This document shows, piece after piece, positions 1,780 to 52,580 of a stretch of 64,000 bases of DNA. The notes under the pieces are model-generated. The model was not told the DNA's origin. It searched no databases and saw only the letters and a list, made by a program, of their open reading frames with translations. Both the position numbers and the translations under genes were made by a program. Position 1 is the first letter of the stretch. The number at the start of each line of letters is the position of its first letter. Source of the stretch: Narcine bancroftii (lineage: Eukaryota); contig NC_091471.1 of the NCBI RefSeq assembly GCF_036971445.1, positions 70,618,001 to 70,682,000 of the forward strand. Direction: 5' to 3'.

Positions 1780-3786
1780 TTCATACTTTGTTTACATCTA
1801 ATTTCCACTTCCTCACCACCACCTTTCCCCTTTTCTCCATTTCCATTTCTCAGTTTTCCTTTTTTGAACGCAATATATGACAACATTTCTAAAACATAAA
1901 ATATTTCAACCATTCCCACATCTAAAATTCCCTTAACCCCAAGTGTCCCCCCTCTCTGATTTGCCCCTTGTCCCTTGATGGTCAACCACAACTCCCCTCT
2001 CCATTCGGACTGCAAACTCATTCGCAAGTGTCAACTGATCTCGCAGTGACTGTTATTCTCTCCCACCCAACCCCCTCCAGAAAAGACTTTTATCTTCCCA
2101 TTACAACAAAGCTCCCCCTCATTTGTTCTCTTTTTCTTTTTTATGTTTTATTTATTTATTATCCATTTTATTATTTATATATATATATTTTAACCCCTCC
2201 TCTTCCCCCCCTTCTCCCTTACTTCCCTTTTTTTCCCTCCTTTAGTTCTTACTTATACATTATTTTTTCTTCTTTATATGTAGTTTGTCATCGTTCTTTG
2301 TTCTTGTTACATCTTTTCATCTTTCTTTCTGTCTTGCAGGTGTTCTGCAAATTCTTGTGCTTTCTCCGAATCCACCACAGGATAACTATTTTAAGCACCA
2401 CTGGATATCTTAACATAAATTTATAGCCTTTCTTCCATAGGATCGATTTTGCTGCGTTAAACTCCTTCCTCTTCTTCAGGAGCTCAAAACTTATGTCTGG
2501 GTAGAAATTTTTTTTTGACTTTTGTATTCCAGTAGTTTTTTGTCTTCTCTCATTTTATTCATTGCCTTCTCCAATATATTTTCTCTTTCGTGTATCTCAG
2601 GAATTTTACTAAAACGGATCTTGGTTTTTGTTGTGACTGTGGTTTCGGGGTTAATGTTCTGTGTGCCCTTTCTATTTTCATTCCTTCCTACATTTCTGGC
2701 ATTTGCAGGACCTTTGGGATCCATCCTTTTATTAATTCTTTCATATCTTTGCCTTCTTCATCTTCCTTAAGGCCCACATCTTTATATTGTTTCTCCTACT
2801 ATAGTTTTCCATTATATCCATCTTCTGAGCTAACAAATCCTGTGTTTCTTTAAATTTTTTATCACTTTATTCCAATTTTCTTTTTAAGTTGTTCACTTCC
2901 ATTTCTACCGCCATTACACATTCTTCCACATTTTCTAATCCTTTCCCTATATCTGTTATGACTAGCTCTATTCTACTCACTTTTTCTTCTCTACTTTTCA
3001 TTTTCCTTTTTATTTCACTAAATTCTAGTGTCAACCATTCTTTTAATGCTTTCATATGTTCCTGAAAATTTTTAAAAATCTATGTACTGTCCATTCCTTT
3101 TACCTCCTATTCCTCTGTGCAGAGCTTGGTGTTTTCCTTCTTCTTCTGTGTCTGCTCTTGGGTTTGTGTCTTTTATTTCTCTTCCTTGTATCTGTGTCTC
3201 TTCTGACTTTCTTGTTGAGCTGCTTGTCTCAGTTTGTTGGGTATTTTTTTTTCTATGGTGTCTTGATGTTGGTCCTCTTCTTCAAAAGGGTACACTAGAC
3301 ACATCTGTTGTGTCTCTAGTTTCCTTTTTGTCATTCTCACCCCTCCCATTCCTATCTTCCAGCTGGGAACCATGCTGTCAGGTCTCTCTCAGCTGTTGGT
3401 CCCCCCCTCCTGTCGGTGTTATCTTTGTCATCCACGGTTGTGCACCTCTGTTTGGCTCCGTGAGCCATCTTTGAAGTCCTGCGGTCAGTCGGTCACGATC
3501 CTGCGCGGTCTCCACTAACCTTAGGGAGTGGGCTCCTCTTTCCACGGCGGGTCCCTGTTTTTTCGTGCAGGTAAGGCCTTCACCTTTCTCTTCCGGCATC
3601 TTTCTTTCTTCTTTTCTTCCCGTTGTTTTTGGCTTTTCTTTCTTAGGTGCCATTTTCTCCACACCTTTATTTTTTATTTGTTGTGATTTGTGTGTCTGGG
3701 GCTTTGTTTTTTCTTCACTTTTTCCCTTTTTTCTGGAGAGGGTTGGTATTCTCCTACTGGCCACTACCAAATCACGTGACTTCTCC
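1..3786 (-). mobile_element. L1-clade LINE, 5' portion (5'UTR, ORF1, spacer, ORF2 endonuclease and start of RT); continues beyond window start
   Basis: ORF1 starts MAPKKEKPK at 3653 and ends ~2307, with stops and frameshifts. ORF2 starts at 1779 with APE motifs (TININGI, IAFMQEMHL, NIYAPN, GGDFN, SRIDL, SDYSP), then WDAMKAFIRG and the pre-RT PGEDG and YRPISLLN motifs near 375-175. Confidence 0.93.
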
Positions 3787-3829
3787 TTGTTATTATGTTG
3801 ATGTACTTGAGTTTTGGGTAACCCCAGCA

Positions 3830-6292
3830 GGCAGGGGATTACTATTGTGGGAAAATGGGACATTTCAAACAGGAATGTCCTGAATTAAAGAGGGAAAGGG
3901 ATGTTATCCCTCTGATGAGGGAGGATTAGTCAGATCAGGGGTTTCTTCCTCCCGGGACCCAGCTGGAACCTTTGATAAATTTCCAACAAAGAGGATGCTG
4001 TTTTTCTGATGGACACAGAGGCCACTAGATCATCATTAAACTTTATACCGGAGGGAGTTAGATTCACGAGTCAACAATTAAAGGTATCGGGGTAAAAGGG
4101 GAAGAGTTTTCTGTACCTATTTTAGGAGTCCATTATGATTGGAACGGATCATGAGAAGTGATGTGGCAATTATTACATTCTGGATATTGGGAGTAACCTC
4201 CTGGGTTATAACTGGGGTTTGAAAAGGGGGTAAAATAAAAATGAGTCCTGAAAGGATTAAGGGGATATTGGAACTGCTTCTCCCGAAAACAAAGAAGGAA
4301 CTAAGGATGTTCCTGGAACTGATGGGTTATTGTCGACTGTGGATAGATTCATATGCACAAAAGACTAGAAACTTATACTTCACCTCTAGGATACTTCAAG
4401 AAACAATGCAAAAGTTAGAAATAACATGGGATTTTCATACCCTATGACATCCCCCTTCCTCAGGATGGGTAGAATGAATGAATCAGACATTGTCCAAATT
4501 GGTGCTAGAAACAAAGTTACCTTGGACTAAATGCCTGCCTATAGCATTACTGCGAATCTGAATAACACCTCAAAGGAATGTCGGATTGTCCCCTTATTAG
4601 ATGCTATTCAGACTGCCATTTTTGGGAAGAGAAGGGGAATTGCCTACTGTAGAAGTTACTGACAAATTTCTAAGGAACTATGTATTGGCACTCGTTTTTT
4701 CTTTATTTGTTCTTAGGAAAAAGGGTCTGTTGGCCCAGACACCACCACTCAAATTTGCTGTTCACAAAATACAACCAGGTGATTGGGTTCTGGTTAAGAC
4801 ATGGAAGGATGCCAAGCATCATCCAAGTTGGGAGGGATCATTTCTAACCTGCCTGACAACTGAGACAGTAATAAGAACTGCATAAAAGGTGGACACATCA
4901 CACCAAAGTGAAAGGACCGGTGAGGACTCCTGCTGAGCTGTCAACTTTGCACATACATCCCACCGAAAACCCACTCAAGATCCAGTTGAAAAGACATTGA
5001 TGGTCATTAGAACAGGACTTGGGATAGTTTGTAAAACATAAGTTAAATATTTATGTACAACCCTCCTCCTTTGGTAGAAAGAAACATGAGATGGTCGTGG
5101 ATATGCTGAATAGAGTTGATAATTGGGAACCAGGGTTGGACTGATGGGATTCATAGCCCAGTAAGAAGAGGATTGGAATCCATCGTCAAGTCCTCAGGGC
5201 CAGTAAAGTTCACCATTACCATCCCCGAGAGTTCTAAACTGCAGGTGATACGGTTCGATGCTTGTAGTTTAATAAAATGTGGAAGGATCGAGAGTCAGAG
5301 ATGATATAGTGTTCAGGAGAAATATATGTGTCTTAATAAATATTTCCCCTATTGGAGTGATGTATGGTGGACTACCCAGAAAAACCTACTCGAAAGAGAT
5401 AAATGGGAAAAATTTGGAATGGGGATGAACATCAGTGGAAAGGACCTGTTGGTGCATTGTTTTAGAATAATCGTAGAAGGATCAAAGACTAATCCAACTC
5501 TCAGTACCTTCACAACAATGCCCAAGGTGAAACCCTATACTTCACCTAATGATCCAAATATAGTACAGATAGTAGAGGTAGAGGACCTTAGACAGATGAT
5601 TGAGATTGAGACAGGATATGGGGATACAAATGCCTGGGTAGAATGGGTAAAATATATGGTGAAGAGTTTAAACAGGAGCAATTGCTATGCATGTGCTTCT
5701 GGACGTCTGATAGCACAGATGGTTCCACCTCTGTTGGGGTGGGGTAAAGACAGACAAGAAATGAGGTGCATGATGGCTTTATATCAGGATAGAGAGGCCT
5801 GGGGTAACCAGTCCTGTAAATCTCTGTCCTTGGTGTTCCCTCCTCTGAAGAGGAAGGATGTCCGGATTTCACCGGCATTCTGGGTTGAGTCAAGGAATCA
5901 CACAGCCTGCATTTCAAGACAAGGAAGACAGTTCACAAAGGACCTTGGAAAGCTACAATTATGCACAAAGGTACAAGACATGACAGAGGAGAGGGGAGGG
6001 AACCACTCAGCCTTGAATGTACCTCGAGCAGATCTAAGGTGGTTCTGCGGAGGCAGAATCATTGGACCAATTCTTCCTCCCAATTGGAAAAGCATCTGTG
6101 CAATCATTCAATTGGCCATACCCTTCACCTTGGCATTTGAATGGGGGAAGACAATAGGGATAAAGAAAAGTAAGGAGTTCCTTGGGATGTTTTTCAATAA
6201 CCAAATTTATATTGATTCAATTGGGGTGCCAAGGGGAGAACCTAACGAACTTTAGGCACGCAATCAGATAGCAGCAGGGTTTGAAGTAGTTT
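3830..6292 (+). mobile_element. Internally deleted class I (gamma/epsilon-like) endogenous retrovirus: gag end, pro, RT piece, IN, env
   Basis: Zinc knuckle remnant YYCGKMGHFKQECP (3840-3881) and amber stop 3927-3929. Protease FLMDTEATRSSLN (~4000-4040), RT thumb PKTKKELRMFLELMGYCRLWI, IN C-terminus IQPGDWVLVK..WEGSF, then env. No LTR seen. Confidence 0.9.
5116..6292 (+). pseudogene. env: Retroviral env (SU and start of TM), two in-frame stops, truncated
   Basis: ORFs 5116-5304 and 5326-6255 share a frame. Contains CxxC (CYAC), NHTAC and YIDSIGVPRGEPNEL*ARNQIAAGFE, typical of ERV3/HERV-I-like and fish class-I envs. Confidence 0.88.
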
Positions 6293-6829: not shown

Positions 6830-7794
6830 CACTTTCTATTTCACACTTAGCTTTAGTATTCACCAAAGAAAAGGACCTTGGTCAAGGTGCATTCAGAGTA
6901 GAACAAGCTCATCTGCTGAGCCATTTTGAGATTAGGACAGAAGAAGTGCTGGATTTTGTTAAAAACATTAAGATTGTTAAGTCCTTAGGGCTGGACAAGA
7001 TATACCCCATGTTGATGTGGGAAGGGATAAAAGAGATAACTGGGGGGTTGGTGATGATCTTTGCTTACTCCTTGGCTACAGGGGAGGTGATGGAGGATTG
7101 GGGAATGGCAAAAATGGTCCCCCTGTTTTAAAAAGTAAAACGGAGAGTCCTGGGAATTATAGACCTGTGATTCTTACGTCAGTGTTGTGCAGACTATTGG
7201 AAAGGATTCATAAGGACAAGATTTATGAGCATTTGGAGAAGTACTGTCTTCTCATGGATAGTGAGCATGGATTTGTGAGGGGAAGGTCATGCCTCATGAG
7301 TCTAATTGATTTTTTTAAGGAGGTAACAAAAGAAATTGATGATGGTACAGTGTATATGGATTTTAGCAAGGCATTTGACAAGGACCCGCATGGGAGAATC
7401 ATTCAGAAAGTCATTGAAGCATGGGATCCATGTAACAGTGGCTGTGTGGAATCAGAATTGGTTTGTCTGTAGAAAGCAGGGAGAAGTAGTGGATGGAAAG
7501 TATTCTACCTAGAGGTCAGTGATTAGTGGAGTTCTGTGGGGATCTGTTCTGGGACGCCTGCTCTTTTTAATTTTTATAAATGACCTTGATGAAGAAGGGG
7601 AAGGATGGGTCAGTAAGTTTATAGATGATATGAAGGTTGGAGTGGCTGTGGATAGTGTTGAAGCTTGTCATAGATTACAACAAGATATAGTCAGGATGCA
7701 GATTTGGGTGGAAGTGGCAGATGGAGTTCAATCCAGTTAAGTGTGAGGCGATGCATTTTGGCAAGTTGAGCACAGGGTTAAAGGTCAGATACTT
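6830..7794 (+). mobile_element. CR1 LINE RT fragment (5' half of a copy split by an L1 insertion)
   Basis: NYRPVILTS, VYMDFSKAFDK, SGVLWGSVLGRLLFLIFINDL, KFIDDMKVG. The sequence resumes at 13526. Confidence 0.92.
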
Positions 7795-10700
7795 TTTTTT
7801 CTTCCTAAATATTTTTATTAATTTTTTTATTTTATATAAGTAAACAGGTATTTAAAGATGTCAGATGTAAAGAAATCAACAGTTATCTAATTTATTTAGT
7901 ACATCTATTATTGAGTACATCTATTAAGTAACAAAACAACTTACAATTTTATCCTGAATATTATATGTTCATTTTCTCCCCATCTCTTGACCCTGTTACC
8001 AAGTTGAAGTTCTATAATTAACATATGCCTTATGCCTGGAGTAATATAACATTTTGGAAGACAGGTTTTATAATAAAACTAGAGGTTCTGAAAGGGTAAA
8101 ACACAGGATTCTGTTGAGACCGTGATTAAGTGAAAAAATACCCAAATGTTGGAGAAAGATAAAGATACATCACCAATGTTTTGGGCCTGACCCTTTCATC
8201 AAGGTGTGGGGGAACATGAAAGATGTTTGAACAAAAGGGGGAAAGGAGGAGAAGGGGTGATGAGGGTGGGAGATGATAGGTGGAGGTGGGGAGGACTGCA
8301 GGAAGTGGGGAGTCTAGGCTCGGTGGAGAAAGAAAGGAAATAGAACTGGAATGATTAGTTAAAGGTTGGGGGGAGGGGGAAAAAGACAAGCTGATTAGTG
8401 GAATACAGTGAACTCAATGTTCATGCCTTGGGATTGGAGAGTGCCGAGACGAAAAATGAGGTGTTGTTCCTCCAATCTGTGGGCCGTCAGGGTGGGGTAG
8501 TGTGAAAGGCCTTGGACAGACATGTGAGCATGAGAATGTGACTCAGATTTGAAATGGTTAGCTACGGTGAGGTCGCTTTTATTGTGGATGGAGAAGAGGT
8601 GCTGGGTGAAGCAATCTCCTAATCTGCAACTGGTCTCTCTGATGTAGAGAAGGCCACAGAGGGTGCATCAGATGCAGTAAATGAGTTCTTTGGAGGTACA
8701 GGTGAAGTGTTGCTTCACCTGAAAGGTCTTTTTGGGACCTTGGACTGCGGTGAGGGAAGAGGTGTGGATGCAAGTATTACACCCTAAAACTACAGTGGAA
8801 GGTGCTGGGGAGGGATAATGGGTGGAGAGGGAAGAGTGCACAAAGGAGTCATAGAGGGAGCAGTCCCTATGGAAGGCTGAGAGGGGAGGAGAAAGAAAAA
8901 CATTTCTGGTGGTGGGGTCCTGTAGTAAGTGCCGTTTATTCCGATTGATAATGTGTTGGATGCGGAGGCTGGTAGGTGGTAGGTGAAGATGAGGGGGATA
9001 CTGTGTTTATTGTTTCTAGGGGCGGGGGCTAGGGCAGGTGAGCATGGAATGGAGGAGAAGTGGGTGAGGGCCGAGTTAATAGTGGTGGAAGGGAAGCCAT
9101 GTTTGTGAAAGAAGGCAGACATTTCAGAGGCTCTGGATTGGTAGACCTCATCTTGGGAGCAGATGCGGCGGAGATGGAGAAATTGAGAGAAGGGGATGGG
9201 GTCCTTGCAGGGGACAGAGTGTGAGGATGAGTAGTCCAGGTAGTTGTGGGAGTTGGAAGCTTTGTAATAAATGTCAGTGGCGAGTCTGTCTCCTGAGTTG
9301 GAGACAGAGAGATCCAGAAAAGGAAAAGTGTCATCGGAGATGGGCCAGGTGAGTTTGATGTCCAGGTGGAATTTGGCCACAAAGTTGATGAAATTGATGA
9401 GTTCCTCGTAAGTGTCTAAGGCCGTCCCGATGTAGTCATTGATGTACCGGAAGAAGAGTTGGGGGGGGGGTCTTGCCTGTGAAAGCTTGTAGCATGTTTT
9501 GCTCCATAAAACCCACAAACAGGCAGGCAGAGCTTGGACCCATGAGGGTACCCACTGGTAGTGGGATGAGTTGAAGAAAAAATTGTTAAGAGTGAGGACA
9601 TTTTCTGCCAGGCAGAGAAGGGTTGTGGTGGAAGGTGACTGCTCAGGTCTGAGGTCCAGGAAAAAGCAAATGCTTTGAGACCTTCTGTGTGGGAAATGGG
9701 TATAAATGGATTGGACATCCATCGTGAAGATGACGTGGTCCGGTTTGGGGAATCTGAAGTCTTGGGGAAGGTGGAGGGTGTGTGAGGTGTCGTGGATGTA
9801 GTTGGGGAGGGATTGAACTGGAGGGGAGTCAAGATAGGATAAAATTAGTTCCGTGGGGCAGGAACAAGCAGAGTCCATGTGTCTGCCTGGATGGTTAGGT
9901 TTGTGTATCTTGAGTCAAAGATAGAAATAGGCAGTGTGAGGATGGGAGACAATGAGGTTGGTGGCCATGGGGGAAGGTGCCCAGAGTCGATGAGGTGAGA
10001 GATGGTGTTGGAGACAGTGGCTTAATGGGTGATAGTGGGGTCCTGTGGGAGGGGTTGATAGGAAGAAGTGTCTGAAAGCTGTTGACTGACCTCAACAAGG
10101 TAGACTACAACTGCACCACACTTGTCTGTGGGTTTGGTAGTGAGGTTAGGGTTGTTGCAGAGAAAGTGTAAGCCAGAGTGTTCTGAGGAGGTGAGGTTGG
10201 AGTAGGAGAGGGCGGTGGTGAAGTTGATATGGTTGATATCCTGCAGGCTGTTGGAGATAAAAAAGATCCAAAGCGCGCAGCTGGCCAGGAGGAGGTATCA
10301 CAGAGGAGGAAGAGGTCCTGAAATGATAGAAAGGGTCTTGGGGGGAGGGTGTTGGGCCCAAAGTAGTGGGCCTGGAGATGGAGGTGATATAAGAAGAGTT
10401 CAGCATTGCGGCGTGCACAGAACTTGTTGAGGTTTGGATGGAGAGGGAGGAAGGTGAGATCTCTGCTGAGGATAGAGCGCTCCACCTCTGAGAGGGGAAG
10501 ATCAGAGGGGATAGTAAAATCCAGACAAGGATCAGAGTTGGATTTGGTATGGTGGAGGGTGTTGGGGAGTGAGGGAGGGTTGGAGAGGTCCAAGGATGGA
10601 GAAGGGAAGAGGGGAGGTTGGAGGAGGGAGGATTGTTAGGGGGAGAAGGGTTGGGGAGAGGAGGGGGTAGGGAACTGCATGGGGGAGAATGGAGGATGAA

Positions 10701-17520: not shown

Positions 17521-18964
17521 CCCTTAGATTTGTCTCCCAAAGTGCAACATTTCACACTTTTCTTGATTTAACTCCATTAACTATTTTTTGCCTATATCTA
17601 TAGCTGACCTATGGCCTGTTGAATTCTTTGATGGCCCTCGACAGAGTCCACACCTCCACCAATCTTTGTGTCATCTGCGTAACACTACAAGTCATGGATC
17701 TCCAGCCAATATAAAACTCTTCCACCGTATGATTTAATATTTGTATATTACTCATTTGTTGCTTAGTAATTACATTGAATCTAATCAGCTCAGTAAACTG
17801 GGACAAGTATTATCCTGACTTTTATATCACAAGCTAATTTCTTGAAAGCAATTTCACATTCTTATGTTGTTTTCATCAGGTTTCTATATTTTTATACTGA
17901 TACACTCCTATAAAATCAAACATCACAGGGCACTCTTTAAACTGCCTCACACTTGTCAGCCTCTATTTTTGCAATTTCAGAATCTGAAGAAATGACTGGC
18001 AGAAAGGTGGAAAGTAAAGATTAACATTCTGTGTGTTGAAGGGAAGAGGCAGCACACAACAATTCACAATAGAAAGAATAAAGCCTATAGTTCAAGAGAG
18101 ATTAGTAGTGTCATTGAGATTTATAGCAGAGATACATATTCTTCAGCCCTTCAAGTCCATCTCGATCTGCTTGCCCACCTACATTATTCCCTTTAATCAA
18201 AGAAACAGAAAATAGGAGTAGGACCATTCAAAACGATTTCAGTCACCTGTTCCTGCTCTCTTTCCATGCATCTTGCTTCCTTTAGCCAATAGGATCACAT
18301 GAACCTTTTCAATATTATTTTATTATCAATATTTTATTATCAATCTTCTTTCTTAGCCTTCATTTTCACTTTTTTCCCCTGCTAGTTGATGCCAAGGTCC
18401 ATTTCAAAATGAAAACAAAGTCATCAGTAACACATATACACTTCAAGCGACATCGAAGATATCTAAAAATGCATGTTTACTTCATTAAAGCAATCAACTT
18501 CAGAAAAAAATTCTTAATGAAGTAGGTTTGCTTGTCGCACTAACCCCCATTCTTTTTCATTTGTAAGGATAAATGTTGTTATGTTCAACAATTGTCTCAC
18601 CTGGTCAGGCTCAGATAAAATTTTCAAAAAAGTTCATGATGTCAGTATTGCGAACAGAAGTTCAGCCTGTCTATCCTTGACAGAATGATTATCACATATC
18701 AACGCTCATGGCAACTAAGACTCCTGAAGGGTTAATAAAGGGCTGAATTGCGCCCAGTGAGACCAGGCTTGTGCCACACATACTGGGATTATCATAAGTT
18801 CTGCTGACCTGCAAGAGGCATGGAAGGTACTTTCAAAAGTAGAAGAGTAAACACTGGCAAATTGGACCAGATAAAGGGTGTTGGGTTTGAGAGCAGCTGT
18901 GACACTATCTGGAACAGAATCTGCATGTTAAGGTCATCAGGCAAGTGGAACTCAAGACATTAAG

Positions 18965-19932
18965 GTAGATAATTTATCTAGCGCTGTCCTCAGTTTCCCC
19001 CCTTTCCATAAGAATTTCCTTATTATTTTCTTTAGCTCATTGAAGAATTTCTCTGTTAAGGGAATTGGTAATGATTGAAACAGGTATTGTATCCTTGGGA
19101 AGATATTCATTTTAATGCAATTTACCCTTCCTATCAGTGTTAGTGGTAAATCTTTCCAATGTTCTAAGTCATCTTGTAATTTCCTCATTAATGGTTGATA
19201 ATTTAATTTGTATAGATGGCCTAGATTATTATTTAGTCTAATACCTAAGTATTGGAATGCTTGTGTTTGCCATTTAAATTGTGATTCTTTTTTAAACTTT
19301 GTGAAATCCGCATTATTCATTGGCATTGCTTCACTTTTATTTGCGTTGATCTTGTACCCCGATATTTCTCCATATTCCTTCAATTTCTTATGTAATTCTT
19401 TTATTGATAATTCTGGTTCTGTTAAGTATATGATGTCATCTGCAAATAGACTGATTTTATATACTTGGAAATAGAAGAGAGCCCGAGAGTACAGCAATGG
19501 TACATAGAAATAAAATTCCATTGGAATTTTCCAATTCCATTAGAAAAAATAACATAAAATTTTAAAAATAAAGTCACATTATTTGAACAAATTTGGGAAC
19601 CATACATGGAACACAACAGAGAGGGCCTACCGCGGACCTCCACCCCCTAAAATGACAGAATGAGAAGAAGACGAAATGAACTGACCCAGTGTGTAAAAGT
19701 AGATGACACAATTTTCTTGTTTATTTTCATTGTGTGATGACATTGTTTAATGGGTTTATTGTATTGTGTATGTTGAACATTTAATGTGTTGGGGGGGGTA
19801 GGAGGGAGGGAGGGAAGAGAGGGGGGAAAAGGAGAGAAAATTACACTGTGTATATTCAAGAGGGAAATGTCTGTGTGTATTTTGGTTAATATGGTTCATA
19901 GTGTGAAAAATAAAAAAATAAATTAAAAAAAG
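18965..19932. mobile_element. L1 (same family as 1-3786) with 5' inversion: minus-strand RT piece joined to plus-strand 3' end and A-tail
   Basis: 18965-19465 (-) encodes YKISLFADD..YLGI..FLWKGGK. 19465-19932 (+) is the ORF2 end (FEQIWEPY), a G-rich 3'UTR and an A-rich tail. Confidence 0.85.
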
Positions 19933-32299: not shown

Positions 32300-33440
32300 C
32301 CATTCTTTTATTTGTAATATGTTATTGATCATTTTAATATATTTAATAATCAATAATCATACCATATACAAAACATCAAGAGAAACCTTCCCTCCATTCC
32401 CCCCCCCTATACAAGTACTATTTAACAGAGAAAGAACAGAGAAAAAGAAACACAAATAAAGGAGCATCTTCTTGTCAGTATGTACAGTAAAACATTTGGA
32501 GACACAATAATACCACAGGGTTAAAATCTTTACAGAAGTTTACTGGCTAGCCAGTAGTGATCGTAACCCTACATTGGCACCACTGAGGTACCTTTATGCT
32601 CTAAATAAGGCTGGCAGATTTTTAGGAAGATGTTATATCCCTTCCTGAGATTGTTTGTGACCTTTTCAAGTGGGATGCAGCTATTAATCTCTAAAGACCA
32701 CCTATCCATGAATAGATGGGAGTCAGACTTTTGTGTTACCGCTATGCACTTCCTGGCCACACACAAGGCAATTTCTGTGAATTTAATTTGAGAAATAGTT
32801 AGTGATCTACCAACCGTGGTAAAGTTCCCCAGAAGACAAAGCTCTTGGTCTACTGGGAAGGTGATTCCTTTGATCTCGGTTAGGATGTCACAGAGGTCGT
32901 AACAGAAGGGCTTCACCTTCGAACAAAGCCAGGTAGAATGTAAAAAGGAACTAACCTCTACACCACACCTAAAAAACATCTCTGATAATTCGGGTTTATA
33001 TTGGTGTAATTTCTATGAGGTGAGGTACAAATGAAGGAAAAAATTATAATGGACCAATCTATACCTGGCATTGATAGTAGCCAACAAACTTCCCTGACAC
33101 AGAACTGAACAGAGTTGTTCAGCAATTGTTTTGTCTAGGTCTTGCTCCCATCCCACCCTAGACTTATGCAAACCTGGCTTTGGGCTCTCACTCATAAATA
33201 AAAAATACATTTTAGAAATAAACATATGCATTTCCTTTATAGAGTAGTTTCTCCTTTCCATTGAGTTCCGTTAGAGTCATTTCAAGGCCCAATTTGACCC
33301 TAAGGAAGGATCGGAACTGAAGGTAACAAAAAAAAAGTATTATTGGACAAATCATATTTCTTATTCTGCTGTTCAAATGACATGAAAAGTCCTTTCTCAT
33401 AACAATCTTCCAGACATTGAATCCCCTTATGACGAATCCA
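32300..33440 (-). mobile_element. L1 ORF2 3' end and tail (third family)
   Basis: INARYRLVHYNF, CG..SFLHSTWLC Zn motif, IAVTQKS, FLKICQPY, T-rich tail ~32305. Confidence 0.85.
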
Positions 33441-33489
33441 ATAATTAAACATTCAATACGAATATGGTTTCAATTTCATAAATTTTTTG

Positions 33490-34510
33490 GTTAGAACAAA
33501 TTTATCTTGTCAAGTCCTATTCCATCTAATTTTTTCATCCAACCATCTAGAATTGATCAAGCTTTTATTATATGGAATATGAAGGGAATAGTATGTTTTT
33601 GCAATTTATGAGCAATTATCGAATAAATATTATTTACCTAGATCACATTTTTTCAGATATCTACAGATTAGGAACTTTTTAAATGCTACTTTATCTACTT
33701 TTCCGATACCACATAAGACTGAAGTTACTGCTAAAATTTTATGTTTAAACCCTTTACAGAAGAGTTTAATAGCAACAATTTATGATTTGATCCTGAAAAT
33801 ATGTCCAGTGATTTCTGACAAAATTAAGAATGAATGGGAAAGAGAACTTCAGATACCTTTACTTAGAGAGACATGGGCGAAAATTCTCAAATTAGTTAAT
33901 ACTTCTTCAATGTGTGCTTAACACTCTTTGATACAGTTTATTGTGGTTCATAGGGCCATATATCCAAGGACAAGTTTTTACTCCTGTGATAAATGTAATT
34001 CTGAGGTGGCTTCCCAGAGTTTTGGTCCTGTCCTTCCCTGAAAAAATACTGGAAAGATATTTTTGATATTATTTCAGCAGTTTTGCTCATTGACCTACAA
34101 CTTCATCCTATTACTGCACTTTTTAGATGAAAAGTTTTGGACTCTGGCCACCTACCTGCTTCAGCTTGTCATGTGATCTCATTTGTTACTTTTATAGCCA
34201 GGAGACCCATTCTACTCCAATGGAAAGACCTTCAACCACCTACTACATTTCAATGATTTTCCCAAAATATAACATGATTAAATTTAGAAAAAAGTACAAG
34301 TGGTACTGTTGAGCCTTCAGTTATATTTGATGAAGCATGGAGGCCATTCATTCAACATTTTCATATGATATAAGTTCATCCCTTCCAAATCCTTTTCATC
34401 TTTTTATTGTGTGAGTGTAGAGGAACAGAATTAACCACAAAACAATTATTTAGTTCTTATGTTTATCAATCTGAAACTTAATTAAAAAATTGAAAAACAA
34501 AGAAAGAAAG
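33490..34510 (+). mobile_element. L1 ORF2 3' end with A-rich tail abutting the Gypsy gag
   Basis: HIFFRYLQIR, KIKNEWERELQ, LIQFIVVHR, CDKC, AWRPF; A-rich end at 34480-34510. Confidence 0.82.
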
Positions 34511-34512
34511 TT

Positions 34513-35552
34513 TTGGATATGATGGGTGAAGATACCTTGGACATCTTTAACAGTTTTCAAATTGATGAAACAGCTTTCATATTGGACACTCTGATGACAA
34601 AAGGTAAGAAGTATTTTGTTCCAAGTAAAAACATCACGTTTGAGAGATTCACGTTTTTCTCCTATGACCAGAAACAAGGTATGAGTTTTGACCAATACTT
34701 AGCCGAGTTTCACACACTGAGTAAGTCCTGTGAATTTGGAGATTTGAAAAATTCACTCGTTAGAGACATGATAGTTTGTGGAATCCAAGATAATGGGCTG
34801 AGAAAAAGACAGTCGCGTGTTGAAGATTTGACTCTGGAAAAGGATGTGACTATGTGTAGGGCAGCAGCGACCACACAAGCACAAGCTAGGGAACTGCACA
34901 AGAGAGGAGCAACAGTTAAGGAGCTTCACAGGAATGACACAATAGTGCATGTGATGAAAATAGCACCAGGGGTTTCCCAAAGTAACAATAGAGCAAAGTG
35001 TTAAACTCAAGCAGCAAATTCAGCAGGTGCGGAGCTAGACATATTCCAAAGATGTGTCCTGCCTATGGAAAGCCCTGCTATAAATGTGGGAAGAAGAATC
35101 ATTTTGCAAAGTGCTGCAAAGCAGGAGATACCAAGAGAAAGGAGCACACAGAGGATGAAGAAATGACGGAATTCCTCGTGAATTTACTGTGGGATGCTGC
35201 TGGTAAAACAAAATGGATCATTCTAGTGACTGTGAATGAGACTAATTCGATTTAAGATCAACACCGGAGCCCAGGTAAATCCGTTATCTATGGACAATTA
35301 CAAAACCCTCACCTTAAGGAGAAAGATTTATCCTGTGAAATTAAAAGTGACAGGCTAAAATGAAGAGAACGTTCCAGTAAAAGGGGCCTATATGTGACTT
35401 TAAAACACAAAGGGTGGCATCTAAAGTCACCGCTACTGATTATAGAAAGGAGAGTACAGCCAATATTAGGTCTGTGTGCATGTGAAGAGCTCAACCTGGT
35501 GCAAAGAATTTTCATAGTGGCTTCACAGACCGAAGATAAGCACACAACACCC
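34513..35552 (+). pseudogene. Gypsy gag-protease remnant
   Basis: ORFs 34513-35004 and 34998-35255, plus protease motif (D>N)TGA at ~35260. Confidence 0.9.
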
Positions 35553-36093
35553 ATGGAATGAAGGATAACTACAATGGAGAAGCGATACCTTAATGTACAG
35601 AGAGAATCAACCTCATTACATGACATGAATGACAAATTGGAAAATGAGTTGGTAAATAAGGATGCCTTCTCATGCCAGCTAGAAGACAAAAATAAACAGT
35701 TACAGGTTCAAATGGAACTTGCTGAACAGCAACTTCAGCAAAAACAATGAAGCGACCAGCAATGTTACCAGAAGTAGAAGCTGAACTTCCCCAGTGAATT
35801 CCAGCTCTGAAAAAGGCTGAAGATCGGCGTGGCAGCTTAGAAGAACGATTGAGACATTTAGAGACTATGTTTGAAGAAAAGAAACAGGAACTGCAAAGGG
35901 CCTGACAGAGAGAGAAATGAATGAAGAACACAATAAGCGACTATCAGACACAATGGACAGATTGTTGACAGAGTCTAATGAGCGACTTCAGCTGCATCTA
36001 AAGGAAAGAATGGCTGCATTACAGGATAAAAATATATTGATGCAAGAATCTGAACTCTTAAGAAAACAACTTGAAGAGTCTCTTCATGATAAG
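35553..36093 (+). pseudogene. PPFIA2: Processed (intronless) fragment of a liprin-alpha coiled coil, closest to PPFIA2 by recalled sequence
   Basis: [104 protein letters not shown], with stops and 1-bp frameshifts. Paralog assignment is uncertain. Confidence 0.9.
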
Positions 36094-36799
36094 AATTTGG
36101 AAAATGCAAAATATCTTCTTTCAACTACAAAACTTAAAGGAGACCCCACACCGTCAGAAGAGGAATTGGCAGTGATGTCGTCCACTGCAGCAGTTGTGGC
36201 TAAGATCGTGAAGCCTGGAATGAAGCTCACAGAGTTGTATCATGGGGATATGTTGAAGCCCAAGATCAATTGCTATTGGCAAAATAGGAAAATAAGAGAG
36301 TGAATAAATTTTTGGATGAAATTGTGAAAGAAGTGGAGATGAAAGCTCTGCTTCTGAAGTGCCAATGTGAAGAATATGAACGTGTGCAAAAATCTGAGGC
36401 AAACCTCTAGGTTAAATTAGAAGATGCCATGAAGGAAATTTGCCATTTACAAAAATGCACTGATGAGGCAAATAAGCATGTTTCATTACTCAACAGGGAG
36501 AATCAGAAATACAAAAGGCAAGTGTCAGGTCTTTCATAGCAGAATTAGGTGCTTTTGACGGAACTAGAAGATGCACGATTAAATCATATTTTACGTGAAG
36601 GTGAAGTTAGTTCTGCTGACATAAGCAGTTCTTCTGACATGATTTCTCAGTATCTGGTGTCTATCGTAATGCTGCTCATGAACTTGCTGATAAACAGGAA
36701 AAGGAAGAGCAGGCGAAACTTCAGCTGAATCTTGCAGATGCCCAGAATGAACTTGAATGACTTAGTGAAACCAGAAGTCATCAGATGCAATGGGTGGAA
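36094..36799 (+). pseudogene. TPR: Processed (intronless) fragment of the nucleoporin TPR N-terminal coiled coil
   Basis: [115 protein letters not shown]. Confidence 0.93.
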
Positions 36800-36880
36800 A
36801 GAGACTAATCACAGAATATAGATAGTTTTTTTCTGTAAACATTGTGTTTGTTTTCGTTTTTTTTTAAAAGGCAAAAGATG

Positions 36881-37065
36881 TGTTATTATGAATCTAAATC
36901 AGAACTACATTTCCCAACATGCAATGTGTGTGGTTGGGCAGAAACTAGAAGTCACATATTATGGGTGTTGTCGCTGGAATTTGGTTGAAGGAGCTCAAGG
37001 AAAATAAAGTCATTTAAGTGTTAAACCAACATTAAGTCATTCTTCTTGAAAGAACAGGCATAACA
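36881..37065 (+). repeat. 3' LTR of the chimeric Gypsy element
   Basis: Follows the purine tract at 36866-36878; TGTTAT...ATAACA inverted termini; AATAAA at ~37003. Confidence 0.75.
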
Positions 37066-37774: not shown

Positions 37775-38385
37775 CAGTGGTTATCAACCTCTTTCTTTCC
37801 ACTCACATACCACTTTATTCCCTACGCCATAGGTGTTCCATGGTTGCTTAAGGTGGTATGTGGGTGAAAAGAAAAAGTTTGAAACCACTGTTTTAATTGT
37901 ATCTAATTGACTTGTTTTGTGAATGGTTTCATTCTTCTTTGGCTTGGCTTCGCGGACGAAGATTTATGGAGGGGTAAAGTCCACGTCAGCTGCAGGCTCG
38001 TTTGTGGCTGACAAGTCCGATGCGGGACAGGCAGACACGGTTGCAGTGGTTGCAAGGGAAAATTGGTTGGTTGGGTGTTGGGTTTTTCCTCCTTTGTCTT
38101 TTGACAGTGAGGTGGGCTCTGCGGTCTTCTTCAAAGGAGGTTGCTGCCTGCCGAACGGTGAGGTGCCAAGATGCACGGTTTCATAACTCCAAAGGAAATG
38201 GACCAATGACAATTTTTCTCAAGCAAAATATTTTGGTAACAATTGGGTCTAGAGCAGTGATTCTTAACCTTCCCTTCCCACTCACATACCACCTTAAGCA
38301 ATCCCTTACTAATCACAGAGCACTGATGACATAGGGATTACTTAAAGTGGTATGTGAGTGAAAAGAAAAAGGTTGAGAACAACTG
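37775..38385. mobile_element. Composite hAT (Charlie-like) MITE made of two hairpin MITEs plus a spacer
   Basis: Hairpins at 37775-37890 and 38256-38385 with CAGTG(G/A)TT.TCAACC termini. Outer 8-bp TSD CTCCAAGT/CTCTAAGT. Confidence 0.88.
37933..38180 (-). mobile_element. RTE-clade LINE 3' fragment, copy 3
   Basis: GGTTTCAT duplicated on both sides; near-identical to copy 4. Confidence 0.92.
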
Positions 38386-43054: not shown

Positions 43055-43895
43055 ATGGAATCATATGTCATAGCATAGAAACAAGGCCTTTGGCCATCAT
43101 ATGACTGGCTATCCATCAAGAACACAAGCATCATTCCTCTCAAATCCCCATCAAAAGTTCCCCTTCTTCCAATTCTCTGCCCTCAACTGTGCAAGGGGCC
43201 ATTTACAGTAGTCAATTCTTCTTCTTTGGCTTGGCTTCGCGGACGAAGATTTATGGAGGGGGTAAAAAGTCCACGTCAGCTGCAGGCTCGTTTGTGGCTG
43301 ACAAGTCCGATGCGGGACAGGCAGACACGGTTGCAGCGGTTGCAGGGGAAAATTGGTTGGTTGGGGTTGGGTGTTGGGTTTTTCCTCCTTTGCCTTTTGT
43401 CAGTGAGGTGGGCTCTGCGGTCTTCTTCAAAGGAGGTTGCTGCCCGCCAAACTGTGAGGCGCCAAGATGCACGGTTTGAGGCATTATCAGCCCACTGACG
43501 GTGGTCAATATGGCAGGCACCAAGAGATTTCTTTAGGCAGTCCTTGTACCTTTTCTTTGGTGCACCTCTGTCACGGTGGCCAGTGGAGAGCTCGCCATAT
43601 AACACGATCTTGGGAAGGCGATGGTCCTCCATTCTGGAGACGTGACCCATCCAGCGCAGCTGGATCTTCAGCAGCGTGGACTCGATGCTGTCGACCTCTG
43701 CCATCTCGAGTACTTCGACGTTAGGGATGAAAGCGCTCCAATGGATGTTGAGGATGGAGCGGAGACAACGCTGGTGGAAGCGTTCTAGGAGCCGTAGGTG
43801 GTGCCGGTAGAGGACCCATGATTCAATTAACCAATAAACAAACACCTATTTACCATCTGGGGGGAAACCAGAGTACTCGGAGGAAATTCATGCCT
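43055..43895 (-). mobile_element. Old V-SINE/HE1-like SINE split by an RTE insertion
   Basis: ATTTACAGTAGTCAATT|AACCAAT...GGAAACCAGAGTACTCGGAGGAAA and a CR1-like tail at 43055-43095. Confidence 0.6.
43217..43825 (-). mobile_element. RTE-clade LINE 3' 600 bp, copy 4, open reading frame intact
   Basis: ORF 43276-43845: ESWVLYRHHLRLLERFHQRCLRSIL..QLRWMGHVSRMEDHRLPKIVLYGEL..RGAPKKRYKD..CNRCNRVCLSRIGLVSH; (AAG)n tail. Confidence 0.95.
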
Positions 43896-48230: not shown

Positions 48231-49216
48231 CACTGAAGTTTATATTATAATTACGTCTAAACTTCTACAGTCTAGAAAATATAAAACATTAGGGGTAATT
48301 TTTGTGTTATTAATGCAATTTTAGTCTAATTATATTAAAGTCTAGTCATATTAAAGTCTAATCTGGAAGGTCGGTGGTTCCTTAAATTTAAGTAACCTTT
48401 AGATGCTAATTTAGTCACAATTGAGACTGAGACAGCAAGCATTACTGCAGCTGTTTTGTTTGGAATTCTATCATACAGAAGAGTTTAGCACATCTTTCAG
48501 TGTCTATATCCAGCCAATGGATATTTCATCAACTGTCATTCTGTATGTTGACTCCTTATTATGGGATATTGTGCACTCCCTGAACTAACGGTCAAACCAT
48601 TTATTAAATAATCATTCCATTGGTGATGTATCGTGATATTTTGGCATAAAGGAAATGATGAATTCAGAGTCTATACTTTTTGTCACTTTTTTCCATCCAT
48701 TTGCATGCTATTTCATTAGAATCATTTTTTTGCTCAGAAGATTATTTTTAAGAGAAAGGCAATTAGTGTCAACAGTCTGTTTACATAAATGTGGAATTCC
48801 ACGAATAGTATTTTCCTACCGCAGTTCTAGAATGGAGTGTGACTCACTGCTCTACTTGCTTTACACTTATGACTCTATGGCTCAGTATGACAACAACACG
48901 GTAGTGGGTTGTATAAAAGGGGTGATGGGTTGTTATACAAGAGGGAGACTGAAACTTAAAATTAAAGATAGTGTAGCGGCAGCTACACTGCTAACTGAAA
49001 TAACACACAACCAGACGGGTTGAGCTTAGTGAGCAGAACTGATTTATTGCAGGCTGCCTGGCTGGCCTTGTACTCCCAGCCCAGACCTGGCTGAGAACCG
49101 CGCTGATGTCACTAGGGTGTCACGTGGGTTCCCAAGTGTGGGCTTCTGAGCCCGGTACCGAGGTTGAAGGGGAAACCCCCGACTGTGCATTTTGGCCGGA
49201 TGCCCCACCGTGCGTG

Positions 49217-52200
49217 TTACAAGCGAGGCCAGTTCGCCTGCCTAATGGCGTGCCGCCACACAGAACCCCAAGAACTGGCGCTGATGTCCTTTATAGTCGG
49301 GCGGCCTTGCTTCTTGGGGTGAGCCACAACTACTGGTTCGGTGGGGTCGAGGTGTGCTAGCTTCAGCCTGTCCACCATAAACAGTTCCCTCCTACCACCG
49401 ATGTCGAGCATGAATGTGGACCCTGAATGCTGGACGACTTTGTATGGCCCTTCATAAGGCCTCTGCAGAGGTGCCGTGGACGGGCCTCGCTGAATAAAAA
49501 TGTACTTGATGGAATGCAGCTTGCTGGGGACGTAAAAGGCCCACGTGCCGTGTCTGGGCAGTGGTGGGGGTGCAATGGAGCCCAAATGGGCCCAGAGGTG
49601 GGGGAGTAGCTCATACGGTGACTGCTGAGGGTTGTGAGGTGCGTTGATGAACTCACTGGGTAGCGCTAGCAGTGCACCGTAGACCAGTTCGGCTGATGAC
49701 GCCTGTAGATCTTGTTTGGGCATCAAGCAGATGCCCAGGAGTATGCAAGGCAATTTGTCCAACCATTCGGGACCAGTGAGGCGGGCCATAGGTGCCGACT
49801 TAAGGTGGCAGTGTAGTCGCTCGACCAGCCCATTGGCCTGCGGGTGATAGGCTGTGGTGCTGTGTAACTCGATCCCCAGCCTGTTAGCGAGCTGTGCCCA
49901 GAGCGCAGATGTGAACTGGGCGCCCCGATCGCTGGTGAGGTGATTTGGGACACCAAACCAGGTGACCCGTGCAACAGCGCTCGGGAGCAGGAGTCCATGG
50001 AGGCATCTGGCATCGGGATCGCCTCGGGCCAACAAGTGGTCCAGTCCACCATCATGAAAAGGTAACGGTTACCCCGAGAAATGGGTAAGGGCCAGACGAT
50101 GTCCACATGAATGTGCCTGAACCATTCCCGGACGTGCTCGAACTCCTGTATGTGCGCTCTAGTGTGCCTGTGCACCTTGGACAGCTAGCAATGGGTGCAG
50201 GTTCTGGCCCAGCCCATGATCTGCTTCCACAGCCCATGCCAGATGAAATGCTCTGCCTTCAAATGGACCGTGGGCCTGATGGAAGGGTGCAAAAGGTCAT
50301 GTATATGGTGGAATACTTGCCTGCGCCTCTGCTGGGGAACCACTGGTCGCAGGGTGCCCATGGAGACATCAGCCAGGATGGTGCTCTCACTGCTAGGAGC
50401 CAGGAGGTCCTGGAACTGCAGGCCCATGATGGCAGTCCTGAAGGCTCATGTCTCCTTCCCAGACTTCTGGTCCCGGGCGAGCTGGTTGAAGTTGAGGCCG
50501 GGTGTCAGCGCGCAGATGGCTGGTTGTGCGAGTGCATCGGCGACCACTTTGTCTTTCCCCGCCCTGTGCCAAATGTCGGTGGAAAACTCTGACACAAAGG
50601 AGAGATGACGCTGCTGGTGGACCGACCAGGGATCCTTTGCCATGGCGAGTGCCTGAGTGAGAGGTTTGTGGTCAGTATAGGTGGTAAAAGTCCTTCCCTC
50701 CAAGAAATAGCAGAAATGCCGCACCGCCAGGTACATGCCCAGTAACTCATGGTCGAAAGCGCTATACTTGCAATCTGGTGGGCAAAATAGCCGGCTGAAG
50801 AACGCCAGTGGCTTCCACTGTCCATTCACTTGCTGCTCCACGATGGCGCCAACAGCTGTGGCAGAGGCATCAACAGAGAGTGCTATATGCAGGTCAGTAT
50901 GTGGGTGGGCGAGCATGGTAGCCTTCGTGAGGGCATCCTTCATGGCATTGAATGCCCTGCAGGCCTCTGGAGTCCAGGCAAGTGTTTTGTGTTTGGCCGC
51001 AATGAAGGCGAAGAGCGGCTGCATGATGCACGCAGCGCCTGGGATGAAATGGTTGTAGAAGTTGACCATACCCGTAAACTCCTGCAGCACCTTGAGGTTG
51101 TCCAGGTGTGGGAACTCCTTGATTGCAGTGACCTTCGTAGCAGCAGGCATGGCTCCTTTGGCCGTGATGGTATGGCCCAGGAACTGCATGGACTCTTTCC
51201 CAAACTGACACTTGGCTGGGTTGATCGTGAGGCCAAAGTCGGCCAGTCGGGAGAAGAGGGAGGGCAGGTGGGCCTTGTGTTGCTCCCGATTCCCGCTGGC
51301 AACCAGGATGTCATCCAAGTAAATGAAGATGAAATCTAAGTCCCTGCCTATTGAGTTCATAAGGCGCTGGAAGGTCTCGGCAGCGTTCTTGAGTCTGAAC
51401 AGCATGCAAAGGAATTCAAAGAAGCCAAAGGGGGTGATTATAGCTGTCTTGGGTATGTCCTCGGGGTGCACCGGGATTTGGTGATACCTGTGCACCAGGT
51501 CGACCTTGGAGAATACCCTCGCACCATGCAGGTTGGCCGTAAAGTCCTGGATGTGAGGGATCGGGTAACGGTCAGGAACTGTCGCCTCATTGAGCTGCTG
51601 GTAGTCTCCGCAGGGGTGCCAGCTGCCAGAGGCTTTTGGGACCAGGTGGAGTAGTGAGGGCCAAGGGCTGTTGGAGCGCTGAATGATCCCCAGCTCCAGC
51701 AGATGCGAAAACTCTGCCTTCGCCACCTGGAGCTTATCCAGCAGGAGCTGGCTTACCTTGGCGTGGACCTTGGGTGGGGATGTGATGGTACAACCTGTGG
51801 CACGGTGAGACAGCAGAGAACTGTGGCTTGAGGAGGGCCAGAAACTTGTCCAAGATACGCTGGAACTCTTCCTTGGGCGTGTTGATCATGGCCATCTGCG
51901 GCTGTTCTGTGTGGGAGGCATTGAGGCAAATGGCCTGAAAGGTACTGGCATCTACCAGGTGCCTACCCCAAATGTCAACCAGGAGCCCGTGGGTGAGGAG
52001 GAAGTCAGCATCCAGAATTGTGGTCGGAAGGGACGAGATGGTGAACCTCCACGAAAACTTGCTGGCTAATCTGGAAGTGGATGGTCTTTTCTCCATATGT
52101 CCAGATTTCTGTTGCATTGGCTGCACGGAGGGGAGGTCCTCGAGGCAGTTTCCTGGACTCGATGGCTGTGGCTGGAATGACGCTGATCTGGGCCCCAGTT

Positions 52201-52267
52201 TCCCTGGAACGAGCAGGGCTGACGACACTTCTGACCTTTGGCTCCCCATCGCTGGAGGTAGAAGCAA
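49217..52267 (-). pseudogene. pol: Gypsy pol (PR remnant-RT-RNaseH-IN), frameshifted
   Basis: Track ORFs 51734-52267, 50446-51726, 50185-50427, 49723-50175 and 49217-50035. Confidence 0.93.
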
Positions 52268-52580
52268 AGGCCCAGAGCAGATGCCTTGCCTCTGGTTATG
52301 TTCTTTGTGGCCCCTGGTGTTCTACTGCCTGTGAGCACCCGCTTGATGGTCCCGAATTTATCTTCCATGGGTGGGTGTTGAACGAGGTGCAGCACACGTT
52401 TGTTGGTCGCCTGGTCCAGGGCAGTGACCACATGGTAGAACCTGTCGTGTCTGGTGGAGGTGAAACTGAGCCTCTGCATGGCTGAACCAGGTCTCTGGCT
52501 CCTGCACCCAAAGATCAGGGAGCTTGATGGCTATAGCACTGACCAAAGGGTCACTCATGTTGGGTTCAAAGGCGTTTGAA

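Follow-up and report, generated by a model that had tools for sequence, protein, structure and literature searches.

Spliced PPFIA2 and TPR mRNA fragments in place of the pol domains of a non-autonomous Gypsy family: a decayed copy from Narcine bancroftii and its probable origin by template switching

Introduction

The capture of several genes by LTR elements is already known. Tan et al. (2016; PMC5131818, cited here for its passages on such chimeras) described partial spliced mRNAs within LTR elements, which show microsimilarity at the switch points, are often in frame and have undergone secondary retroposition. For such chimeras, the same source establishes co-packaging and template switching, with later mobilisation in trans. 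One of them, Drosophila CG4799_CG11924_r, joins two parental genes within a single Pao element. These retrocopies are few and young, with 3, 7 and 10 in mosquito, zebrafish and chicken, respectively. Maize Bs1, as described in PMC5131818, is a non-autonomous element that carries fragments of several unlinked genes with shared switch points, partly in frame; it is present in 1-5 copies per genome, and its hybrid protein is made. In vertebrates, HERV-K/FAM8A1 (cited in PMC5131818) is an old LTR element amplified after host mRNA capture. The crocodilian endogenous retroviruses CrocERV29, which carries KIT-ligand, and CrocERV31, which carries nectin3, are likewise old and amplified after capture; according to the account in PMC4299795 used here, they are retroviral, single-gene captures of whole ORFs with 6-9 copies and purifying selection.

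Here, we analyzed a window of 64,000 nucleotides from Narcine bancroftii, which contains a decayed copy of a Gypsy family carrying pieces of PPFIA2 (liprin-alpha-2) and TPR. Like the cases of Tan et al., the family has partial spliced mRNAs within an LTR element, microsimilarity at the switch points, secondary retroposition and in-frame joins, and it shares with CG4799_CG11924_r the presence of two parental genes. In contrast to those few young retrocopies, it is old, accounts for about a third of its Gypsy family, counts hundreds of candidate copies and occurs in other species too. It resembles Bs1 in being non-autonomous, in its unlinked gene fragments, in its shared switch points and in being partly in frame, but it has hundreds of copies, of which the 54 examined are dead, and its parent is present. 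It also differs from the crocodilian retroviruses: it is a Gypsy element lacking env, the two fragments fused to its Gag-protease are internal ones, and selection was not demonstrated. What sets the family apart is a two-gene, in-frame replacement of pol that was amplified to hundreds of copies in a vertebrate, with the parent and intermediates preserved. Our literature search found no report of a Gypsy liprin-TPR element, and "liprin" was absent from the top 20 matches of one query. The main text of a preprint on vertebrate retrocopies (10.64898/2026.06.26.734816) does not contain PPFIA2, TPR, Narcine or "chimeric"; its supplements may list such copies.

Structure of the window copy

A sequence-only reading of this stretch had described the gag, zinc knuckles and protease of a Gypsy element leading into liprin and then TPR, and this order was borne out by protein matches and host exon matches (Table 1). 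The Gypsy part aligns to the fish Gypsy Gag-Pol proteins P0134-P0136, with 61% identity over the N-terminal half of gag. The nearest Gag-Pol proteins to 34511-35552 (P0134-P0138) are from medaka and killifish, at 57-66% identity, and the next matches fall to 37-39%. This closeness hints at a possible horizontal transfer of the Gypsy lineage between bony and cartilaginous fishes. Beyond the position equivalent to 35558, where the chimera has liprin, parent copies continue into reverse transcriptase (RT).

The 3' part of the element had been read as an integrase-like tail (KRLITE) followed by an LTR. The tail is not integrase: in parent copies the pol frame stops immediately before junction 3, so 36800-36865 is 3' untranslated sequence, and an integrase tail at 36800 was ruled out. 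The LTR at 36.8-37.07 kb does belong to the same family as the gag, and parent and chimeric copies carry it on both sides.

The window copy is dead, as the same reading had stated. It holds stops as well as frameshifts near 34965, 35242, 35390, 35740, 35914, 36244 and 36660, including a single frameshift close to the end of gag and two in the protease and linker. When the window was probed with the 5' LTR and leader, the 3' LTR alone matched; the copy is without 5' LTR, primer-binding site (PBS) and leader, and a LINE-like 3' end occupies their place. This LINE-like end, presumably L1/Tx1, gave no Pfam match and matched another repeat at 25.0-25.6 kb by tblastx. A short-read contig is identical to the window copy across junction 3 and may stem from the assembly's own sample.

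Table 1. Features of the window copy (positions in the window) and related loci elsewhere in the genome
Feature	Position	Strand	Remarks
LINE-like 3' end with A-rich tail, outside the element	33200..34510	+	occupies the place of 5' LTR, PBS and leader
gag (capsid region), 5'-truncated	34511..35015	+	weak Pfam Retrotrans_gag; 61% identity to P0134
Nucleocapsid zinc-knuckle region	35016..35125	+	zf-CCHC E 0.0066, below the curated cut-off; aligns to P0134-P0136
Aspartic protease and protease-RT linker	35205..35552	+	aligns to P0134 residues corresponding to Pfam Asp_protease_2
Captured spliced PPFIA2 (liprin-alpha-2) mRNA, residues 311-490, coiled coil, 5 exons	35553..36093	+	
Captured spliced TPR mRNA, residues about 351-605 (mammalian numbering), coiled coil, 6 exons	36091..36799	+	
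3' untranslated tail of the parent, directly after the pol stop codon	36800..36865	+	
Polypurine tract, adjoining the LTR	36866..36878	+	seen in the sequence
3' LTR, 187 bp, TG...CA	36879..37065	+	at both ends of chimeric and parent copies
TPR-only element with longer TPR (12 exons touched), L083	G000:C17:107696000-107704000		
TPR-only element with longer TPR (12 exons touched), L084	C15:196557500-196567000		
TPR-only element with longer TPR (12 exons touched), L095	C17:95852600-95858200		
Liprin/long-TPR recombinant, L082	C22:72152500-72160000		

Captured host sequences

The best protein match of the liprin piece is electric-ray liprin-alpha-2 (P0001), and the PPFIA2 gene of the same genome translates to P0001 at 492 of 493 residues. 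The liprin piece corresponds to five consecutive exons of this gene and the TPR piece to six exons of the TPR gene of the same genome, both at 87-95% nucleotide identity. Mapping to the host genes, as had been proposed, confirmed the loss of introns. For PPFIA2, 10.1 kb of the gene is reduced to 543 nt with four introns absent; for TPR, 5.5 kb is reduced to 768 nt of coding sequence with five introns absent. Of the five TPR exon joins, four can be read in the window copy, and the fifth falls within a 21-nt deletion and is present in other copies. Coiled-coil proteins resemble one another weakly, and an assembly chimera or a chance resemblance of this kind might be invoked. However, such an account is already refuted by the high identity to host exons in their proper order and by the same junctions at dozens of loci and in contigs of other organisms, and we give it practically no weight.

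Both pieces are internal coding fragments without 3' ends. No poly(A) tail or target-site duplication (TSD) of their own was found at the PPFIA2 and TPR inserts; these were the marks by which the sequence-only reading would have recognized separate LINE-made retrocopies. Two LINE-made processed pseudogenes could in principle have entered a Gypsy copy at the DNA level and been multiplied later; LINEs are plentiful in the window, and they are credited with most vertebrate retrocopies in the sections of 10.64898/2026.06.26.734816 consulted. This idea is already contradicted, however, by the internal nature of the fragments, by the exact removal of 2.7 kb of pol between two microhomologies, and by the separate flanks and TSD of each copy, which together make it very improbable.

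Junctions

Each of the three junctions lies on a microhomology. Junction 1 is in the protease-RT linker, at an 8-nt match between the parent and PPFIA2 mRNA; junction 2 is at 6 nt shared by spliced PPFIA2 mRNA and the interior of a TPR exon; and junction 3 is at a 6-7-nt match between TPR and the parent, directly after the parent's pol stop codon. For random joins, the chance of each of these lengths is at most 0.003. The whole coding region for RT, RNase H and integrase (IN) was thus exchanged for the host pieces.

The patterns of junctions 1, 2 and 3 were found in 33, 32 and 37 of 62 loci, respectively, and in none of the 27 parent loci. The liprin piece starts at the identical base in 33 of 49 copies and earlier in none, and the TPR piece ends at the identical base in 37 of 51. 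The genome-wide junction search that had been called for therefore recovered identical junctions in dozens of unlinked copies. Its extension to other species was also positive: junction 1 is spanned by contigs from three other organisms, and a single contig of 924 nt spans junctions 2 and 3. Junctions that are identical across copies and lie on microhomologies of 6-8 nt are as expected for template switching by reverse transcriptase.

The inserts agree with the retrocopies of Tan et al. (PMC5131818) in being intronless partial mRNA copies with microsimilarity at the joins and no poly(A) or TSD of their own, and secondary retroposition with shared switch points, a mark of LTR-mediated retrocopies, was found as well.

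Junction 2 could alternatively have arisen by splicing. In such a scheme, a TPR-bearing element in a PPFIA2 intron, or trans-splicing, would have joined an exon donor to a cryptic TPR acceptor, and the resulting RNA, already with polypurine tract and LTR, would have recombined only once with the parent, as in classical retroviral transduction. The liprin piece does stop where a PPFIA2 exon ends (chance 0.037), a coincidence better accounted for by splicing; on the TPR side the join comes after an AG, and the presence of TPR in both derived forms would be accounted for, with L082 carrying liprin and the long TPR. However, the acceptor would be weak (6 of 12 pyrimidines), and the PPFIA2-TPR match at junction 2 reaches 3 nt into the next PPFIA2 exon. 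The other junctions are all mid-exon microhomologies. Furthermore, no remnant of the family was found in 140 kb of PPFIA2, nor in 50 kb of TPR. We therefore regard splicing as an unlikely source of junction 2, and template switching as the probable one.

The family and its parent

First-look searches of the 3.3-Gb genome gave 258 candidates for liprin, 285 for TPR, 887 for gag-protease and 627 for the RT of the parent; these are not copy numbers, and 40 candidates were scored per search. Exact matches to the tail pattern, counted by eye, numbered 92, with 35 preceded by TPR and 57 by the end of pol. No other cargo in the same backbone was seen among the 92 tail matches or the 27 parent loci. 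For comparison, we used 54 distinct chimeric-type loci and 28 parent-type loci (the 27 of the parent set and the rearranged L050), and five duplicate loci as well as repeated entries were dropped before counting. The double capture by a non-autonomous element was thus upheld, but the earlier reading had missed the hundreds of copies and the living-type parent.

Several forms could be distinguished. Form A is the autonomous parent, LTR-gag-PR-RT-RNase H-IN-LTR, which shares LTR, PBS, gag-protease and tail with the chimera. Form B (three copies) joins gag, before the protease, to a longer TPR piece. The great majority of chimeric copies belong to form C, the double chimera of PPFIA2 and TPR. Form C', found in 11 copies against 24 undeleted ones, is form C lacking 99 nt of liprin. 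Form D is a single copy that combines the 5' half of C with the long TPR of B. At all 15 sites that read either allele, form B has the chimera-type gag allele, and several parent copies carry such alleles too. Forms B and C therefore descend from one parental sub-lineage, although its haplotype is common to some parent copies. A liprin-only element with a longer liprin piece was sought and rejected; the next PPFIA2 exon matches once, in the gene itself, and 0 of 49 copies extend past either junction.

Individual copies show further changes. L092 and L088 are single copies in which a deletion has removed most or all of the liprin piece; that of L092 runs between short repeats at junctions 1 and 2. 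L050 (G000:C23:75524200-75531200) is a parent-type copy that has an inverted LTR-TPR piece on its upstream side and liprin sequence on its downstream side, and represents nesting or rearrangement of family members.

At parent loci, up to about 1200 of the 1250 residues of P0136 are covered. Pfam finds PR, RT, RNase H and IN in this order in P0136, and the Ty3/Gypsy domain order gag-PR-RT-RNase H-IN between LTRs was found in the parent. Its pol stops ~80 nt short of the LTR, too little space for an env. The family does not have the pol and env with an extracellular phase that mark the retroviral class, and its nearest proteins are Gypsy Gag-Pol.

The copies bear the marks of LTR retrotransposition. 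They have paired 187-bp LTRs of the TG...CA type, each pair with different flanks. For 13 LTR pairs whose ends could be read, alignment of the flanks as a 5-bp TSD gave 37 matches among 65 bases, compared with 18.2 in shuffles, and this count was reached in 0 of 5000 shuffles. Downstream of the 5' LTR, 26 of 54 chimeric and 13 of 27 parent loci have a PBS-like site, which is complementary to the 3' end of an intron-containing host tRNA gene (Rfam). Paired LTRs, PBS, polypurine tract and TSD are all present in the parent family; the window copy itself has neither 5' LTR nor PBS. We read the matching tRNA gene as probable Leu(CAA), and ARAGORN labels it Thr. The intron-containing gene lies at G000:C8:93520074 (L128), with a decayed relative at C8:222007705 (L129). 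At C1:167035940 (L127), a tRNA 3' end with encoded CCA resembles a PBS or a retroposed tRNA fragment.

The Mag lineage is described as having short LTRs, a 5-bp TSD, a tRNA-Leu or -Ser PBS and usually one or two ORFs (PMC3286476, in the part cited). The present family is alike in its 187-bp LTR, 5-bp TSD, tRNA-Leu-type PBS and one gag-pol ORF, and the length of the parent, about 4.3-4.7 kb, is in keeping with this lineage. The parent appears to fit a Mag-like Ty3/Gypsy element, placed by features rather than by an RT tree.

Reading frame

In both chimeric and parent copies, every gag-protease interval has a modal length divisible by three. The frame is kept across junction 2 in 31 of 34 copies and over the 100-nt span at junction 1 in 27 of 44. 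Indel events in the inserts are largely private (109 of 139 and 154 of 205). No stop is fixed; the most common one occurs in 21 of 40 copies and one at junction 1 in 3 of 39, and the seven most-shared stops, each in five or more copies, are all at CpG sites. Shared frameshifts are confined to the last ~40 TPR codons, which are shifted by a 19-nt deletion in 13 of 51 copies and by a lengthened A-run in 8 of 12 scored copies. A stop three codons past junction 3, found in 28 of the 35 chimeric copies and in 2 of the 57 parent ones, represents one mutational event.

The claims that both upstream junctions are in frame and that the consensus may be one open ORF were sustained in part. At family level, gag-protease, liprin and most of TPR really form one frame, and only the last ~40 TPR codons depart from it, in some copies. 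Chance may nevertheless have produced it. The null expectation is not one in three, since 6-8-mers common to these coding sequences keep the frame in 41-57% of cases, and given microhomology the chance for junctions 1 and 2 jointly is about 0.25. The C' deletion, the 5' junction of form B and a 252-nt deletion of form B are also in frame. The joint chance that all five propagated junctions and deletions are in frame is 0.004-0.034, for a set chosen after the fact. Selection keeping the fusion frame may be suggested by these figures, and they are suggestive only.

Selection and age

In the proposed comparison of nonsynonymous and synonymous changes with the parent genes, private substitutions are neutral (N/S 3.8-4.1 versus 2.5-3.1 expected), and mid-frequency changes are 6 synonymous to 10 nonsynonymous (p 0.11). 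Fixed differences between the copies and the host are 25 synonymous and 5 nonsynonymous, a ratio that fits host evolution and leaves no separable selection. Since their synonymous rate of about 0.075 equals the terminal branch length (0.072), and since in the one cluster of nonsynonymous differences the residues of the window copy are closer to whale shark than to the present host, the fixed differences are likely host changes since capture. Shared TPR differences, being mostly later host changes, were uninformative as a test of single versus double TPR capture. The codon positions of shared gag variants (19, 6 and 16) were set aside, as CpG decay likely confounds them.

All copies examined (54 of roughly 260) are dead, and the longest stop-free stretch is 275 codons out of about 840. 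A functional chimeric retrogene of the Bs1 type, with intact ORF and purifying selection, was not found among these 54, and no annotated Gag-liprin-TPR protein was among the homology search matches, the latter being weak evidence.

A functional passenger might nevertheless have driven the burst. The TPR piece would then act as a nuclear-basket decoy or docking tag that eases the export of unspliced RNA or access to the nucleus. The L458 and M489 positions of TPR are needed for NUP153 binding and for the retention of an unspliced retroviral reporter RNA by TPR (PMC3258255, in the results cited), and both are included in residues 351-605. TPR is present in every derived form, the five propagated junctions are in frame, and the stop past junction 3 is in most chimeric and few parent copies, though it is one mutational event. 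However, none of the private, mid-frequency or fixed changes gives a separable selection signal, and one third of the liprin piece is lost in 11 of 35 scored copies. In addition, the host has a residue other than Met at the 489 position, and a random 255-residue piece would cover both residues about 1 time in 10. We consider it improbable that the Gypsy element captured a NUP153-binding coiled coil whose protease-released decoy, extended by liprin, explains growth to a third of the family. If true, the TPR decoy would be a retrotransposon-encoded anti-restriction factor whose source was the very restriction factor that it opposes.

A tree built from 47 copies has the shape of a star, with terminal branches of 0.072 and internal branches of 0.003. 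The copies therefore arose in one burst, by quick amplification after capture, and there is almost no internal branch on which selection could be tested. LTR-LTR distances range from 0.08 to 0.34, with a median of 0.22 (26 pairs). On an assumed, unsourced rate of 1-2 x 10^-9 per site per year, the age would be roughly 35-110 million years, and the contigs of other organisms that bridge the junctions are consistent with it.

Putative mechanism and significance

After weighing these data, we consider that the window most probably holds a decayed member of a non-autonomous Gypsy family whose RT, RNase H and integrase gave way to spliced PPFIA2 and TPR via template switching, and which spread in trans. 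That the mechanism known from other LTR chimeras applied here is inferred from the anatomy of the family. The TPR mRNA might have been captured first, giving the rare gag-TPR form. Co-packaged parent RNA, TPR-bearing RNA and PPFIA2 mRNA would then have recombined into gag-protease-liprin-TPR-tail. This order of events is not fixed, being weakened by the reading of the TPR differences as later host changes and by the chimera-type gag alleles in parent copies. As Mag-like gag-pol is one ORF, the founder is predicted to have encoded a Gag-protease-passenger protein of ~840 residues, with the passenger in the place where RT began and likely cleaved off. The autonomous parent likely supplied, in trans, the enzymes that copied the chimera to a few hundred sites.

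The frame itself was most likely kept by a mixture of chance and benefits in cis, namely its own Gag and protease and a stop near the normal place, rather than by a function of the passenger. Long 3' UTRs trigger nonsense-mediated decay, against which a retrovirus needs a stability element (PMC5031192, in the portion cited), and a stop near the normal place would let the RNA escape such decay. Because of this decay, and because frameshifts are tolerated only near the end, we think that the frame may have benefited the RNA and Gag/protease. Form B, which has no protease, stayed rare.

If this origin is right, a Gypsy element and not a LINE made several hundred retrocopies of two vertebrate genes at once, and oncogene-style transduction was replayed in nature without a virus. 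The parent, the TPR-only form, the recombinant and the deletion subfamily are all still readable, and the copies form a large sample for testing whether passenger frames are kept for RNA stability, for Gag/protease in cis or for a passenger protein. Catalogues of cartilaginous-fish retrocopies that credit LINEs may be inflated by amplified LTR chimeras of this kind. The copies also keep an old state of TPR and PPFIA2 mRNA and could date the event across rays.

Other features of the window

The window is repeat-dense and has no obvious host exon. A second Gypsy element at 49200-52500 (-) is GC-rich and better preserved, with RT and RNase H matches in a 479-codon stretch. At 5305-6252 (+), a stop-free stretch of 316 codons gave no Pfam match; it resembles a retroviral envelope fragment. 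Fragments of retroelements lie at 1-3900 (-), 6981-7469 (+), 8793-9914 (-), 18955-19539 (-), 37930-38180 and 43220-43845 and are, judged by resemblance, presumably L1/Tx1-, CR1-, Penelope- and RTE-like. Two copies of a short inverted-repeat (MITE-like) element were found at 37775-37895 and 38250-38385, and the same element also lies beside another copy of the family, L006.
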